Shown here: one piece after another, positions 23,933 to 33,661 of the stretch | Numbering within the stretch: position 1 is the stretch's first letter | Layout: the number at the start of each line of letters is the position of its first letter | Assembly (NCBI GenBank): GCA_040752415.1 | Contig: JBFMGU010000015.1 | Span: forward strand, 6,458 to 70,457 | DNA from: Myxococcota bacterium | GTDB taxonomy: Bacteria > Myxococcota > JACRCW01 | DNA length: 64,000 bases | Direction: 5' to 3' | The notes under the pieces: generated by a model | The model's input: only the letters and a program-made list of their open reading frames with translations | Told to the model about the DNA's origin: nothing | The model's database searches: none | Translations under genes and position numbers: made by a program

Positions 23933-24403
23933 TCAGCGGAAGAAGGTCGCGTGACAGGCCACGCACGTTTCCGTCAGTTGCCCGAAGGCCCGGGCGATAT
24001 CCGCGTCATTCCCCTTGGCCGCCGTCCGGGCCAAAACCCCGGCGCGCTCCTGCAGCAGGTCCTGGATGATGAAGAACCGCTCGGGAATCTCCGCGTTGAC
24101 TTCGTTGCCGGTCATGCCCAGCGGCCGCGCCACCTTGGGCTCGCTGGCAATGCTGTCCGCCAAATGCTCCGTCTGATCATGCTCCAACAGCAGCACCGAC
24201 CAGATCAGCTCCTCCATGTCGTCGCCGTGGCGCATCATGCGCGGCCACACCACCACACGGGAAACCTCGTTGAGGTCCTCGCCGCCCGCCCGCGGCGGCG
24301 GAATGTCCGTGGCCACGTCCTGGTTGGCCCAGGCCTGCACCCCCATCGACGCAGCCACTCCCAACGCCAACCCGAAGAACAACCACCACGCGCGCGACTT
24401 CAT
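23933..24403 (-). CDS. Class II cytochrome c (cytochrome c'-like)
   Basis: A signal peptide is present. The single CxxCH motif, CVACH, sits within 10 aa of the C-terminus, and the protein is about 150 aa with helical predictions. Confidence 0.65.
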   Translation of the reverse strand: MKSRAWWLFFGLALGVAASMGVQAWANQDVATDIPPPRAGGEDLNEVSRVVVWPRMMRHGDDMEELIWSVLLLEHDQTEHLADSIASEPKVARPLGMTGNEVNAEIPERFFIIQDLLQERAGVLARTAAKGNDADIARAFGQLTETCVACHATFFR

Positions 24404-24480
24404 GGCGAACGCTCCAGTCCGGGACGGGGTCGACGTCACCTCGTCGCCGCGGAGGGGTGTGCATGCGCGGTGCCAGGGAA

Positions 24481-24819
24481 TCAGCGTTGCATCCGCTCCG
24501 CCAAGAACACATGCCGCCCCGCCTTCATGGCGCGCAGGCCCTGGACGGTGATCCGTTGACCGGTCACGACGTCCTGCCCGGCGACCAGGTGCACCTCCAA
24601 CACGTCATCCTGCGTGCGGAGCATGAGCTGCACGCCCTCCGGCACGCGCTTGAGGGCAACCACCTCTCCCTGCACCGTCTCCTCGCGGGTGACATCCCGT
24701 GCGTTGCTGGCAGCGGGCTTCTTCCATCCGTCCAGCGCCGCCGCCGTGGCGGGACCCAGCGGAACCGCAAGCGTGACGAGGACGAACAGCCCGTACACAG
24801 CCATGTTTTCACGCGACAT
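24481..24819 (-). CDS. Hypothetical small periplasmic protein
   Basis: The start MSRENMAVYGLFVLVTLAVPLG has a signal or TM segment followed by a beta-rich domain. Confidence 0.45.
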   Translation of the reverse strand: MSRENMAVYGLFVLVTLAVPLGPATAAALDGWKKPAASNARDVTREETVQGEVVALKRVPEGVQLMLRTQDDVLEVHLVAGQDVVTGQRITVQGLRAMKAGRHVFLAERMQR

Positions 24820-24925
24820 GATCAACGACCTCGCTGAATTGCGTCGTCGTTTCGCAAGAAACCTGCCATCATTCCCGAGCTGGGGTGATGGCGTGATGCG
24901 CAACGTGTGCGGGTGGAGGAAAACA

Positions 24926-25399
24926 ATGCGCTGGTTGGTGATGGCGACGTTGACGCTGGTGCTCGCCTGTGAGCGCTACGACGAGCCCAACCGTCCCCTG
25001 CCGCCGCTGCAGCTGGAGCATGTGGATGGGCGAGCGCTGGACTTGTCGTCGCTGCGCGGGCGCCCGGTGGTGATCAATCTCTGGTTGCCAGGTTGAGCGT
25101 CCTGTCTCCGGGAGTTGCCCGGAGTGGAAGCGGTCCGACGGGAATTCCAGCCCCGTGGCGTGGAGTTCATGGCGCTCTCGTTGCACCCGGTGGCGGATGA
25201 GGTGGTGCGCGCCGCCAGCAAGCATGGTGTGGGCTCGACGGTGGCGTTGGCGCGCGGTGAGGTGCTGGGACCCCTGGGGTTGCGCGTGGTGCCGGCCACG
25301 GTGTTCGTGGATGCCAAAGGCGTGATGGTGGCGTCCGCCGAAGGAGAACGGAGCGAGGCGTTCTTCCGACGACGGGTGAAGGCACTACTTGCGGAGTGA
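24926..25399 (+). CDS. TlpA/ResA-like lipoprotein thiol:disulfide oxidoreductase with an in-frame TGA (candidate selenocysteine, U-A-S-C motif)
   Basis: The lipobox is MRWLVMATLTLVLAC. The protein reads ...RPVVINLWLPG-TGA-ASCLRELPGVEAV...VPATVFVDAKG, which aligns residue-for-residue with TlpA (NLWATWCVPCRKEMP ... LVDPQG). The TGA sits at the first Cys of CxxC. ORF-track entries 24614..25096 and 25115..25399 share one frame. A SECIS-like hairpin follows. Confidence 0.6.
25106..25124 (+). other. Candidate bacterial SECIS hairpin
   Basis: A 7-bp stem CTCCGGG / CCCGGAG has the loop AGUUG. It starts 10 nt after the UGA at 25094-25096. Confidence 0.45.
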
Positions 25400-31523: not shown

Positions 31524-31726
31524 TGTACGCCTGGTTCTACCAGCAGAGCTCCGTGCTGCATCTCCCGATTGCGGCGCTGATCATCTTCATGTGCGTGTTC
31601 CTGGGTGTCGTGGTGCGTGTGCTCCGGACCCCGGGCAAGAACGAGCAACAAACGCGGATGGCGTCCCTACCGCTCCAGGACGAGCCCCTTGCCACCCGCG
31701 GCATCATCGGAGGAAGCCATGACTGA
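31520..31726 (+). CDS. ccoQ: CcoQ/FixQ-like small membrane subunit
   Basis: The 68-aa protein has a single TM. The C-terminal motif LPLQDEP resembles FixQ NLPF.DEP. It overlaps ccoNO as ATGA and ccoP by 8 nt. Confidence 0.55.
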   Translation: MMYAWFYQQSSVLHLPIAALIIFMCVFLGVVVRVLRTPGKNEQQTRMASLPLQDEPLATRGIIGGSHD

Positions 31727-32288
31727 GAACCGCGTCCACCAGGAAGTCGACGGAATCGTGGAGGAGGACAACCAGCTCCCCAACTGGTGGCTCGCCACCT
31801 TTTTCGGGGCGATCATCTTCGCCTACGGGTACTGGCAGTACTTCCACGTCTGGCAGATTGGTCAGAGCCCCGCGCAGGAATTCGCGGCGTACCAGGAGAC
31901 CGTGAAGCAGAAGCAGCCCGCGGGCGGCGGTGACAACGTCAAGCCCGACGTGCTCCTGGCCGCGGCCTCCGGACCGGAAGCGCAGCAGGGCGCGCAGATC
32001 TTCGCCGCCAACTGCGCGGCGTGTCATGGCAACGCCGGTGAGGGGAAGATTGGACCCAACCTCACCGACAGCTTCTGGCTGCACAACGGTGACCCGGTGA
32101 GCATCCACACCAGCATTGCCAACGGCTACCCGCTCAAGGGAATGCCGGCGTGGAAGGCGGTGCTGGGCACGGAGAAGGTCACGCAGGTCACCGCGTACGT
32201 GTTGAGCCTGAAAGACAAGAACATTCCCGGCAAGCCGCCAGAGGGGGAGGCTCAGCCGGCCGCGCCGGGGAAGACCACGTCCCTCTGA
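31719..32288 (+). CDS. ccoP: cbb3 oxidase subunit III CcoP (short, monohaem form)
   Basis: The N-terminal TM NWWLATFFGAIIF is followed by a single CAACH and a MPAW Met ligand region. At 189 aa it is half the size of dihaem CcoP. Confidence 0.75.
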   Translation: MTENRVHQEVDGIVEEDNQLPNWWLATFFGAIIFAYGYWQYFHVWQIGQSPAQEFAAYQETVKQKQPAGGGDNVKPDVLLAAASGPEAQQGAQIFAANCAACHGNAGEGKIGPNLTDSFWLHNGDPVSIHTSIANGYPLKGMPAWKAVLGTEKVTQVTAYVLSLKDKNIPGKPPEGEAQPAAPGKTTSL

Positions 32289-32296
32289 GTTGAAAG

Positions 32297-33661
32297 ATGG
32301 ATGCCACCGTTCCGCCCACCACCGCACCCAGCAGTCGCGCCCTCCGTCCCGACGGGACCCGAGCCCGAATCCATCCCAAGGAGACGAACGGGCGCTATAC
32401 GCGGCTACAACAGTGGCTCTATCCGGCGCTGATCCTGTTCTATGCCGCACTGCCCTGGGTCCCGGTGGGCGGGCACCCGGCAGTGTGGATAGACATCCCG
32501 CAGCGTCGTTTCTACCTGTTTGGTCTCACGTTCAATTCCACGGACTTCTACCTGGTGTTCTTCATCATCAGCGGGTTTGCCTTCTCGCTGGTGGTGTTGA
32601 GCGCGCTGGTGGGGCGGGTGTGGTGCGGCTACGCGTGCCCGCAGACCGTCTACATTGACGGCGTGTACCGGAAGCTGGAGCGGCTGGTGGAGGGAACCGC
32701 GCGGGAGCGCCAGGCGCGGGAGCAGGGACCTTGGACGGCGGAGCGCGTGGCCCGCAAGGCGCTCAAGCACGTGCTTTTCGTGCTGGTGTCCCTGCTGATT
32801 GCGCACGTGTTCCTGGCGTACTTCGCCACCGCGGAGGACGTGCTGGAAATGATGCAGCGCTCTCCCCTGGAGAATCCCACGCCGTTTGCCTGGGTCATGG
32901 CCATCACGGGGTTGCTCTATTTCAACTTCGGCTGGTTTCGGGAGCAGTTCTGCCTGGTGCTATGTCCCTATGGTCGCATGCAGTCGGTGCTGGTGGACCG
33001 GGACACGGTCACCGTGGGTTACGACGCGCTCCGTGGCGAGCCGCGCGGCAAGCTGAAGGGCGAGGCCCACGGGGATTGTGTGGACTGCCGCATGTGCGTG
33101 CAGGCCTGTCCGACGGGAATTGATATCCGCAACGGTATGCAGATGGAGTGCATTGCGTGCGCGCACTGTGTGGATGCCTGCAACGAGGTGATGGTCAAGA
33201 TTGGCAAGCCCACGGGACTCATCCGGTATGACTCCTTGGCCGGACTGGAGCATGCCAAGCGGCAATTCTGGCGCCCGCGTGTGTACGGCTACATCGTGGC
33301 GGGTCTGGCGGGGCTGACGGCGTTGACGCTGGCGGTGAACCACCGCAAGGCGTTCGAGGCGAATCTCCTGTGGGCCCAGGCCGCGCCGAGGACGGTGCAG
33401 GGTGAGCAGGTGGTGCACCGGATGGTGGTGCATCTCAACAGCAAGACGGCGGAGGCCCGGACCTACCAGCTCTCCCTGGACGCTCCCGAGGGTGCGCAGG
33501 TCATCCTTCCCACGCCCGCTCCCACGCTGGAGCCGTTTGGCAGCGTGCACCTCCCGGTGATGGTGGTGACGAGCAAGACGTCCGGGGGCGAGCGGAAGGT
33601 GACGCTGCACGCGAAGGATTCCGTGACGGGGGAGGTGCGGTCGGCGGTGCTGAAGCTATGA
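32297..33661 (+). CDS. ccoG: CcoG/FixG 4Fe-4S ferredoxin-type membrane protein
   Basis: Five TMs are predicted. Two ferredoxin motifs, CVDCRMCVQACP and CIACAHCVDAC, are followed by a C-terminal Ig-like region. Confidence 0.85.
   Translation: MDATVPPTTAPSSRALRPDGTRARIHPKETNGRYTRLQQWLYPALILFYAALPWVPVGGHPAVWIDIPQRRFYLFGLTFNSTDFYLVFFIISGFAFSLVVLSALVGRVWCGYACPQTVYIDGVYRKLERLVEGTARERQAREQGPWTAERVARKALKHVLFVLVSLLIAHVFLAYFATAEDVLEMMQRSPLENPTPFAWVMAITGLLYFNFGWFREQFCLVLCPYGRMQSVLVDRDTVTVGYDALRGEPRGKLKGEAHGDCVDCRMCVQACPTGIDIRNGMQMECIACAHCVDACNEVMVKIGKPTGLIRYDSLAGLEHAKRQFWRPRVYGYIVAGLAGLTALTLAVNHRKAFEANLLWAQAAPRTVQGEQVVHRMVVHLNSKTAEARTYQLSLDAPEGAQVILPTPAPTLEPFGSVHLPVMVVTSKTSGGERKVTLHAKDSVTGEVRSAVLKL

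Follow-up and report, generated by a model that had tools for sequence, protein, structure and literature searches.

Genes of the locus

The window, i.e. the whole stretch of 64,000 nucleotides (nt) of Myxococcota DNA analyzed here, contains a gene cluster for a cbb3 oxidase, a respiratory oxidase with high oxygen affinity, and, facing it across a divergent intergenic region, the gene for a membrane protein of the DsbD_2 family. The latter is accompanied by a gene for a small lipoprotein resembling YHS domains, and a third gene nearby specifies a thioredoxin-fold lipoprotein of the TlpA/ResA type, designated TlpA(U). In a preliminary description of this DNA, a dedicated electron relay from DsbD_2 to TlpA(U) had been suggested to serve the maturation of the oxidase. 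The analyses described below revealed the DsbD_2 gene as a regular member of cbb3 clusters and led to the proposal that its product might handle copper.

The G+C content of the window is 66-72%, and raw lists of open reading frames (ORFs) are therefore crowded with spurious frames. Genes were called by their third-position G+C (GC3), and all 43 GC3-supported ORFs of at least 80 amino acids (aa) in the window were scanned with Pfam. The genes named in the preliminary description were recovered at the positions claimed for them by translation and by Pfam and NCBIfam searches. Since the closest relatives of the DsbD_2 protein are merely about 50% identical to it, the lineage is poorly sampled. 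The three genes in question are the following:

25684..26433, minus strand: DsbD_2-family protein with six transmembrane (TM) helices (PF13386, 7.6e-30)
25385..25678, minus strand: YHS/TRASH-like Cys lipoprotein, 97 aa, lipobox AAAC
24926..25399, plus strand: TlpA/ResA-like thioredoxin-fold lipoprotein TlpA(U), 157 codons, with predicted selenocysteine (Sec) at codon 57 (WLPG-U-ASC)

On the minus strand, translation yielded DsbD_2, the 97-aa lipoprotein, a small secreted protein, a cytochrome c'-like protein, and a glyoxalase. The first two genes, separated by 5 base pairs (bp), constitute a two-gene unit facing ccoI and are co-transcribed. The TlpA-like gene is read from the plus strand, the minus-strand translation of 24926-25399 being nonsense. 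It is convergent on the DsbD_2/YHS-like unit, overlapping the 3' end of the YHS-like gene by 15 bp (25385-25399), and divergent from a separate minus-strand unit formed by the genes for the small secreted protein, the cytochrome c'-like protein, and the glyoxalase. While four genes had been placed on one side of the divergent promoter in the preliminary description, only DsbD_2 and the YHS-like gene are actually located there.

Linkage of DsbD_2 genes to cbb3 genes

Genomic contexts of DsbD_2 genes were collected by look-ups of the encoding contigs, by scanning a single genome of each species with the family alignment, and by tblastn searches with proteins of the window. Among the 92 related loci, 87 harbor at least one cco gene beside DsbD_2. 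Three of the five exceptions end at a contig edge within about 550 bp, and only two loci, L061 and L072, are truly without cco genes. Four gene arrangements were observed. DsbD_2 may be located straight after ccoG, stop and start overlapping by 4 bp (L003, L004, and L090), or after ccoG and a FixH-like gene (Bacteroidota); it may be divergent from ccoI (the window, L001, and L091-L093), or it is found upstream of, or divergent from, ccoNO (L087-L089). Cluster-linked DsbD_2 genes were detected in Bacteroidota, Myxococcota, Balneolales, Ignavibacteria, Zixibacteria, and Kiritimatiellia, and a DsbD_2-type gene has been reported in cbb3 operons of Chlorobi under the name TauE/SafE (PMC10158934). 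Because the linkage survives four different arrangements, the DsbD_2 gene is a bona fide, near-universal member of the ccoNO-type cbb3 cluster, and its assignment to the cluster in the preliminary description was borne out. The two loci with DsbD_2 away from cco genes belong to Flavobacteriia (L072, 9498-10723; L061, 10010-10786); L072 retains an ORF for a short N-terminal TM protein that looks FixH-like, by appearance only.

In the four closest relatives (L001, L091/L092, and L093), ccoI is divergent from DsbD_2, which is followed by the YHS-like gene and by a gene for a universal stress protein (Usp). In the window, the Usp gene is located beyond ccoG (34388-34810), and the block 23506-25399, which includes the TlpA(U) gene, fills the place of Usp in the relatives. 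A TlpA/ResA profile matched an ORF within 10 kb of DsbD_2 in four of the 92 loci, none of them adjacent, and the sole strong match was 9 kb away. Since the block stands where relatives have Usp, TlpA(U) is a lineage-specific, chance neighbor rather than a conserved partner. Conservation of the neighborhood had been named as a check on the relay; it was found for DsbD_2 with cco genes and for the YHS-like gene, but not for the TlpA-like gene.

With a Usp gene directly after the DsbD_2-YHS pair in L001, L091, and L093 and another one beyond ccoG in the window, Usp seems to accompany this cbb3 module recurrently.

Conserved residues and topology of DsbD_2

The match of the window protein to PF13386 reaches 104.7 bits at a cut-off of 24.9 and covers profile positions 4-199 of 199. 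Both motifs pointed out in the preliminary description, HCAGMCGP and LPCM, are present. They correspond to H23-C24-x-x-M27-C28-G-P in TM1 and P151-C152 in TM4, and in an alignment of 34 homologues (A1) the residues H23, C24, M27, C28, G29, P30, P151, and C152 are invariant. Viewed as a helix, H-C-x-x-M-C forms an HxxxM stripe beside a CxxxC stripe. An AlphaFold2 model (predicted local distance difference test, pLDDT, 85.6; predicted template modeling score, pTM, 0.81) exhibits six TM helices and a C-terminal beta-hairpin, with TM4 broken at LPC (residues 148-153).

Averaged over the alignment, the successive loops contain 0.06, 1.94, 0.79, 7.21, 0.12, and 3.26 Lys and Arg residues. By the positive-inside rule, these counts argue for an N-out/C-out orientation and place the C-terminal tail presumably in the periplasm. 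The tails contain on average three Cys, His, or Met residues. In nearly all cluster-linked copies they end with CH, CCH, MMH, or PHxS...M(F/L)W, the last being the ending found in Myxococcota; the tail of the window protein is of this His/Met/Trp type. A Cys/His tail is missing from L061 and L072, the copies without linkage to cco genes.

With regard to family assignment, Pfam revealed only PF13386 and a weak SfLAP match for the window protein; PF02683 (CcdA) and TauE (PF01925) were not matched. For some homologues, a precomputed PF02683 match is available. The A1 profile detected nothing relevant among PDB sequences at E<=10, including solved CcdA/DsbD proteins, and a Foldseek search of PDB with the model gave no match below E=1. 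The designation CcdA-like, used in the preliminary description, consequently holds at the level of the superfamily and for the invariant Cys residues in TM1 (C24, C28) and TM4 (C152), but it is supported neither by a PF02683 match nor by detection of a solved CcdA/DsbD protein with the family profile. A tblastn search for DsbD_2 on plasmids gave no match. PF13386 may correspond to the InterPro 'UreH-like' domain of nickel permeases, a correspondence not used as evidence here. UreH is a documented nickel transporter family (PMC2667541).

The YHS-like lipoprotein

The 97-aa lipoprotein did not match YHS (PF04945) or TRASH directly in Pfam at E<=1. A word-indexed search with the protein yielded only three relatives. 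In an alignment of four close members (A3), C40, M68, C69, and H72 are invariant, and a full HMMER scan with the A3 profile detected 199 relatives, many with tandem repeats. Nine of these were sampled: four score 64-102 bits on Pfam YHS, three of which are also over the TRASH cut-off, and a fifth is over the TRASH family cut-off only. The YHS-like character claimed before is thus supported by transitive profile homology, but not by a direct Pfam match. In the AlphaFold2 model, pLDDT is above 90 at residues 41-90. Its top fold matches, which are not significant (E about 1), are toluene monooxygenase hydroxylases, and these, we assume, bear a YHS domain in the aligned stretch. The homologues found at the loci examined (L001, L087, L091, L092, and L093) are all located directly after DsbD_2.

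The relatives P0132-P0145 often consist of tandem arrays of two to five YHS/TRASH repeats, in one case joined within a single protein to leucine-rich repeats and a Planctomycete cytochrome c domain.

A possible function of DsbD_2 in copper handling

Taken together, the invariant His, Met, and three Cys residues, the C/H/M tail, and the YHS/TRASH partner look like a site for a soft metal rather than a two-Cys relay. On account of the invariant H/C/M and Pro-Cys motifs, the tail, and this partner, we give about an even chance to the proposal that DsbD_2 handles Cu(I), not electrons, for cbb3 assembly. According to this proposal, the interleaved HxxxM and CxxxC of TM1 and the Pro-Cys of TM4 would constitute an intramembrane site, from which Cu(I) could be exchanged with the Cys/His/Met-rich, presumably periplasmic tail and, in this clade, also with the YHS lipoprotein through its Cys, Met-Cys, and His residues. 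Periplasmic copper would thereby be joined to the cytoplasmic route leading from the cupric reductase CcoG to the exporter CcoI and to CuB. DsbD_2 would be a functional analogue of CcoA, an importer of the major facilitator superfamily (MFS), and copper might either be imported, as with CcoA, or be handed over to CcoN. For TlpA(U), which is independently transcribed, the role in this organism would at most be to maintain Cys ligands in the periplasm or cysteines of apocytochromes in the reduced state.

Published data on cbb3 biogenesis would be compatible with such a function. CcoA is the only known copper importer for cbb3; its copper site is built from MxxxM and HxxxM of TM helices, and additional importers have been anticipated (PMC7558416). 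A truncated ccoA is located right after ccoGHIS in Rhizobiales, at the place corresponding to that of DsbD_2 (PMC5829832), and a gene in the cbb3 cluster of Flavobacteriia has been labeled 'copper tolerance protein' by RAST (bioRxiv 10.1101/679894). The broader statement of the preliminary description, that the locus is a copper-delivery neighborhood for cbb3, is supported.

Several points weigh against copper handling by DsbD_2. In the literature searched, no experiment and no metal-binding data were found for any member of the family, the topology is based solely on the positive-inside rule, and fold and profile searches did not reveal an informative solved relative. Invariance of the motif is in part a matter of construction, the word-indexed search and an HCxGMCGP pattern scan favoring motif-bearing sequences; the C-terminal tail and the cco linkage are unaffected by this bias. 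Moreover, the protein belongs to the DsbD/CcdA superfamily with some homologues matching PF02683, the Cys residues it carries in TM1 and TM4 are just what a thiol relay would require, and tails with Cys in the periplasm would have to be kept reduced in their turn, leaving room for a redox role.

The last points also speak for a thiol-disulfide transporter of the CcdA type, passing electrons from cytoplasmic thioredoxin via TlpA(U) to copper chaperones or to cysteines of the oxidase or of apocytochromes during cbb3 maturation. The invariant Cys residues are positioned mid-membrane beside Pro, TM4 is broken at LPC, the gene for the TlpA/ResA-like lipoprotein is only 285 bp away from DsbD_2 in this genome, TlpA acts as a reductant of CoxB and ScoI (PMC7558416), and, apart from the tails, the YHS lipoprotein would also require reduction. 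However, the TlpA(U) gene is convergent on the opposite strand and is therefore not co-transcribed with DsbD_2. No thioredoxin-fold gene was found adjacent to DsbD_2 in the 92 loci, and the closest relatives have Usp at the corresponding position; hence, conservation does not support the relay. A relay would not need the invariant His, Met, and third Cys or the C/H/M tail, and the family profile does not detect solved CcdA/DsbD sequences. Considering both sides, such a transporter appears rather unlikely, and the dedicated relay from DsbD_2 to TlpA(U) of the preliminary description was not supported, although a relay confined to this lineage is conceivable.

An exporter of sulfite or organosulfonates of the TauE/SafE type, or another small-solute transporter merely traveling with cbb3 genes, is suggested by the name 'sulfite exporter TauE/SafE family protein', which NCBI and JGI apply uniformly to the homologues including the cluster members and which one paper took over for the gene within the cbb3 operons of Chlorobi (PMC10158934), but it is highly improbable, as the Pfam match is to PF13386 and not to TauE, as linkage of an unrelated exporter to cco genes across phyla and rearrangements would be hard to explain, and as the invariant Cys/His/Met motif and a metal-type tail are ill-suited to anion export.

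The handling of Cu(I) by DsbD_2 can be extended to a more detailed and more tentative picture. Cbb3-linked DsbD_2 proteins might generally be Cu(I) transporters or membrane copper chaperones that fulfill the task of CcoA by means of the HxxxM/CxxxC/Pro-Cys site and the periplasmic tail, those of this myxobacterial clade being fed by a dedicated YHS lipoprotein, whose cysteines, in this organism, would be kept reduced by the Sec-containing TlpA-like lipoprotein; judged from the sequences, this is possible, but we would not favor it. With similar reservation, such an unrecognized Cu(I) family would span Bacteroidota, Myxococcota, Chlorobi, Ignavibacteria, Zixibacteria, Kiritimatiellia, and others.

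The probable selenocysteine of TlpA(U)

Reading of the TlpA-like gene on the plus strand gives MRWLVMATLTLVLAC...INLWLPG*ASCLRELPG..., interrupted by one in-frame stop codon. The elements relevant to its interpretation are:

25094..25096, plus strand: in-frame TGA read as Sec, aligned with the first Cys of the ResA CxxC (4nmu_A)
25106..25124, plus strand: hairpin resembling a Sec insertion sequence (SECIS), CUCCGGG-AGUUG-CCCGGAG, with a perfect 7-bp stem and a 5-nt loop containing GU

The protein matches the Pfam families AhpC-TSA (2.4e-11) and Redoxin (3.9e-11), both above the cut-offs, and it aligns to ResA structures with 1e-10 to 1e-12 (4nmu_A, 1.4e-12), the motif included. It contains the lipobox LVLAC; the equivalog cut-offs of NCBIfam for ResA and TlpA were not reached. 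A word-indexed search yielded only four relatives, and all four have Cys at the position of the TGA. The coding signal is intact on both sides, with GC3 values of 0.86 upstream of the TGA and 0.79 downstream; a GGAGG is found 8 nt ahead of the ATG.

For bacterial SECIS elements (bSECIS), the criteria quoted in a 2026 review are a loop of 3-9 nt, a stem of 4-16 bp, G within the first two positions of the loop, and a distance of 16-37 nt from the UGA, with an energy criterion of minimum free energy <= -7.5 kcal/mol (PMC13188914). The stem at 25106 starts 12 nt after the TGA; with a spacing of 16 nt and a folding energy of -19.4 to -23 kcal/mol, the hairpin agrees with all four criteria. Such a hairpin follows only 0.17% of the positions in the window. 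When the 60 nt after the TGA were folded, the overall z-score was just -0.78, and the base rate of the hairpin was used as the test instead.

If the TGA were a genuine stop or had arisen recently by nonsense mutation, the TlpA-like gene would be a pseudogene or two fragments. A TGA is one mutation away from TGC or TGT, Rfam gave no match at the gathering threshold for the whole window and thus no catalogued SECIS, ARAGORN detected no tRNA and no tRNA-Sec in the window, and Pfam scans of the window revealed no sel genes. In addition, a pattern scan of metagenomes did not find a Sec-containing orthologue of TlpA(U), and in the NCBI annotation the gene is represented only by the 91 aa behind the TGA (25097-25399, plus strand; P0121), called a 'hypothetical protein'. 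Against this stand the location of the TGA exactly at the nucleophilic Cys of CxxC, the uninterrupted GC3 signal, the hairpin with its low base rate, and the fact that TlpA-like selenoproteins with UxxC (cd02966) are a recognized family (PMC13188914), which together render a pseudogene improbable. The TlpA-like gene therefore very probably specifies a UxxC selenoprotein, as the preliminary description had proposed, and is a further member of an already known selenoprotein kind. It is mis-annotated, since NCBI calls only the fragment behind the TGA.

The only metagenome match to the pattern N-L-W-L-P-G-U-A-S-C, in L086, was rejected as a chance hit in another reading frame of an unrelated sequence without TlpA homology.

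The cbb3 cluster and its upstream region

The genes on the other side of the divergent region constitute an ordinary cbb3 operon of the Bacteroidota/Myxococcota type:

26434..26629, no strand: divergent intergenic region between DsbD_2 and ccoI, holding the palindrome GCACGGCGCGTGC at 26603-26615
26630..29029 (about), plus strand: ccoI, P1B-type ATPase with CPC motif and N-terminal Cys-rich metal-binding domain
29025..29208, plus strand: ccoS-like ORF, 60 aa, single TM, assigned by position only
29205..31523, plus strand: fused ccoNO, 772-aa ORF; COX1 7.2e-115 (residues 12-442), FixO 4.6e-81 (residues 541-753)
31520..31726, plus strand: ccoQ-like gene; FixQ 24.3 bits, under the cut-off of 29, supported by position
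31719..32288, plus strand: monohaem ccoP; FixP_N 1.4e-13, Cytochrome_CBB3 1e-14, one CAACH motif
32297..33661, plus strand: ccoG; TIGR02745 1e-122, 410 bits at a cut-off of 317

CcoI is above the cut-offs of Pfam E1-E2_ATPase, Hydrolase, and ATPase-cat_bd, and the CPC motif is evident in the sequence; with the NCBIfam copper/heavy-metal models TIGR01525 and TIGR01511 it scores 240-257 bits, below their cut-offs of 346-397. By Pfam, NCBIfam, and motifs, the identification of ccoNO, ccoP, and ccoG in the preliminary description was confirmed, and so was the architecture, with COX1 and FixO in one ORF and a single CxxCH motif in CcoP; that of ccoI is supported by its Pfam domains and its motif. 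For ccoS and ccoQ the picture is mixed. An ORF is present at the position expected for ccoS, but it has no match to Pfam FixS (PF03597) at E<=10, and the ccoQ-like gene likewise has the right position but a FixQ score under the cut-off. The position of the ccoS-like ORF is kept in L001, with small ORFs at the same spot in L003, L004, and L090; these unassigned ORFs of 56-69 aa in the four loci may specify a divergent CcoS or another small subunit.

No FixH/ccoH gene was detected by Pfam among the scanned ORFs of the window, in agreement with the absence of ccoH noted before; FixH is present in the relatives L087 and L089. Genes for CcdA, Sco, or the selenium pathway were not found elsewhere in the window in the Pfam scans.

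The palindrome GCACG-N3-CGTGC is located 15-30 nt upstream of the ccoI start both in the window (GCACGGCGCGTGC) and in the roughly 50% identical relative L001 (GCACGCCGCGTGC, about 9780-9810, reverse strand). A regulator site or a hairpin in the 5' untranslated region is conceivable. A coding origin was dismissed, as the two loci differ by 2 nt in the distance of the palindrome to the ATG. The region 26434-26629 contains no match to a sigma-70-type promoter, and the scan for promoters and terminators was uninformative.

Flanking genes

The separate minus-strand unit consists of three genes:

24481..24819, minus strand: small secreted protein without assigned family, signal-peptide-like N-terminus, GC3 0.80, divergent from the TlpA(U) gene
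23933..24403, minus strand: secreted cytochrome c'-like (class II) protein with C-terminal CVACH motif
23506..23913, minus strand: glyoxalase/VOC family gene; Pfam Glyoxalase 2.9e-06, GC3 0.93

For the small secreted protein no Pfam match was obtained even at E<=10. The cytochrome c'-like protein scores 26.4 bits with Pfam Cytochrom_C_2 at a cut-off of 26.5, the match being confined to the 45 C-terminal residues with the CxxCH helix, and it shows weak PDB matches to cytochrome c' (E 0.012). The glyoxalase gene is the last one of the unit and lies outside the cbb3 module.

Directly upstream of this block, a large secreted protein with VIT/VWA domains is encoded (21158-23509, plus strand), which has no tie to respiration. 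At the other end, a gene with a CBS pair and the Usp gene (33882-34810, minus strand) converge on the end of ccoG. Further away, two genes of the zinc-type alcohol dehydrogenase and class I/II aminotransferase families overlap each other by 4 bp (36982-39230, minus strand), a pair resembling tdh-kbl of threonine degradation and unrelated to the cbb3 genes. A hemerythrin-domain gene (52735-53208, minus strand) adjoins the glyoxylate-shunt genes for malate synthase (53443-55215) and isocitrate lyase (55273-56604).

Significance and comparison with known systems

The copper route to CuB of cbb3 is understood in no more than a few Proteobacteria, with CcoA, CcoG, CopZ, CcoI, SenC, and PccA as components, and reviews state that further copper importers must exist (PMC7558416). 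Most cbb3 clusters of the fused ccoNO type contain a DsbD_2 gene that is mislabeled as a sulfite exporter and has no function assigned. The linkage as such is already visible in annotation; the pairing with YHS and the type of tail seen in Myxococcota are variants specific to the clade. In the literature searched there was no functional study of a PF13386 protein in cbb3 biogenesis, only passing mentions (PMC10158934, bioRxiv 10.1101/679894). In addition, the annotation of the selenoprotein gene TlpA(U) is corrected here. Outside this one genome, a relay from DsbD_2 to TlpA is probably a dead end.

TlpA(U) shares with the known UxxC TlpA-like (cd02966) and Prx-like selenoproteins the thioredoxin fold, Sec in place of the N-terminal Cys of CxxC, and a bSECIS directly downstream (PMC13188914). 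Its motif WLPG-U-ASC differs from that of the WAxxUGC family (NF041054, 50 bits at a cut-off of 300), and unlike the family compared it is a lipoprotein, for which a Sec-containing orthologue was not found in the metagenome scan.

With CcdA/DsbD and their partners TlpA, ResA, and CcmG, DsbD_2 has in common the superfamily, six TM helices, the N-out orientation, and Cys next to Pro in TM1 and TM4; in this one genome, the TlpA/ResA-like lipoprotein nearby adds to the likeness. DsbD_2 is distinguished by its membership in PF13386 instead of PF02683 and by the additional invariant His, Met, and third Cys, and the cbb3-linked copies in the 92 loci have no conserved thioredoxin-fold partner.

The gene of Bacteroidota and Chlorobi referred to as 'TauE/SafE-like' or 'copper tolerance protein' belongs to the same family and exhibits the same cbb3 linkage as the DsbD_2 gene of the window. 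Differences are seen in the tails, PHxS...M(F/L)W in Myxococcota and CH or CCH in Bacteroidota/Chlorobi, in the YHS lipoprotein that is paired with DsbD_2 only in this clade, and in gene order, since DsbD_2 is divergent from ccoI here and located after ccoG and fixH there.

CcoA/CalT, the MFS copper importer for cbb3 biogenesis in Rhodobacter, resembles DsbD_2 in its linkage to cbb3 assembly genes and in an intramembrane motif of the HxxxM type, one helical turn apart and with Cys contributing (PMC7558416). Both would supply copper to the CcoG/CcoI route, which for DsbD_2 is a proposal only. The folds are unrelated, six TM helices of the LysE/DsbD superfamily in DsbD_2 versus 12 of the MFS type in CcoA. 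DsbD_2 does not have the MxxxM plus HxxxM in TM7/TM8 that define CcoA, the HxxxM-like spacing being the only common feature, and its site is rich in Cys (CxxxC and Pro-Cys), unlike that of CcoA. It also differs from CcoA by the C-terminal, presumably periplasmic metal tail and, here, by the YHS lipoprotein partner.

In mercury resistance systems, the periplasmic metal-binding protein MerP and the membrane proteins MerT or MerF hand on a soft metal by ligand exchange, using two pairs of Cys residues, one in TM1 and one at the terminus. DsbD_2 is set apart from the Mer transporters by its tail, which is probably periplasmic, and no sequence relationship was shown, but the combination of DsbD_2 with its YHS partner would follow the same design logic.

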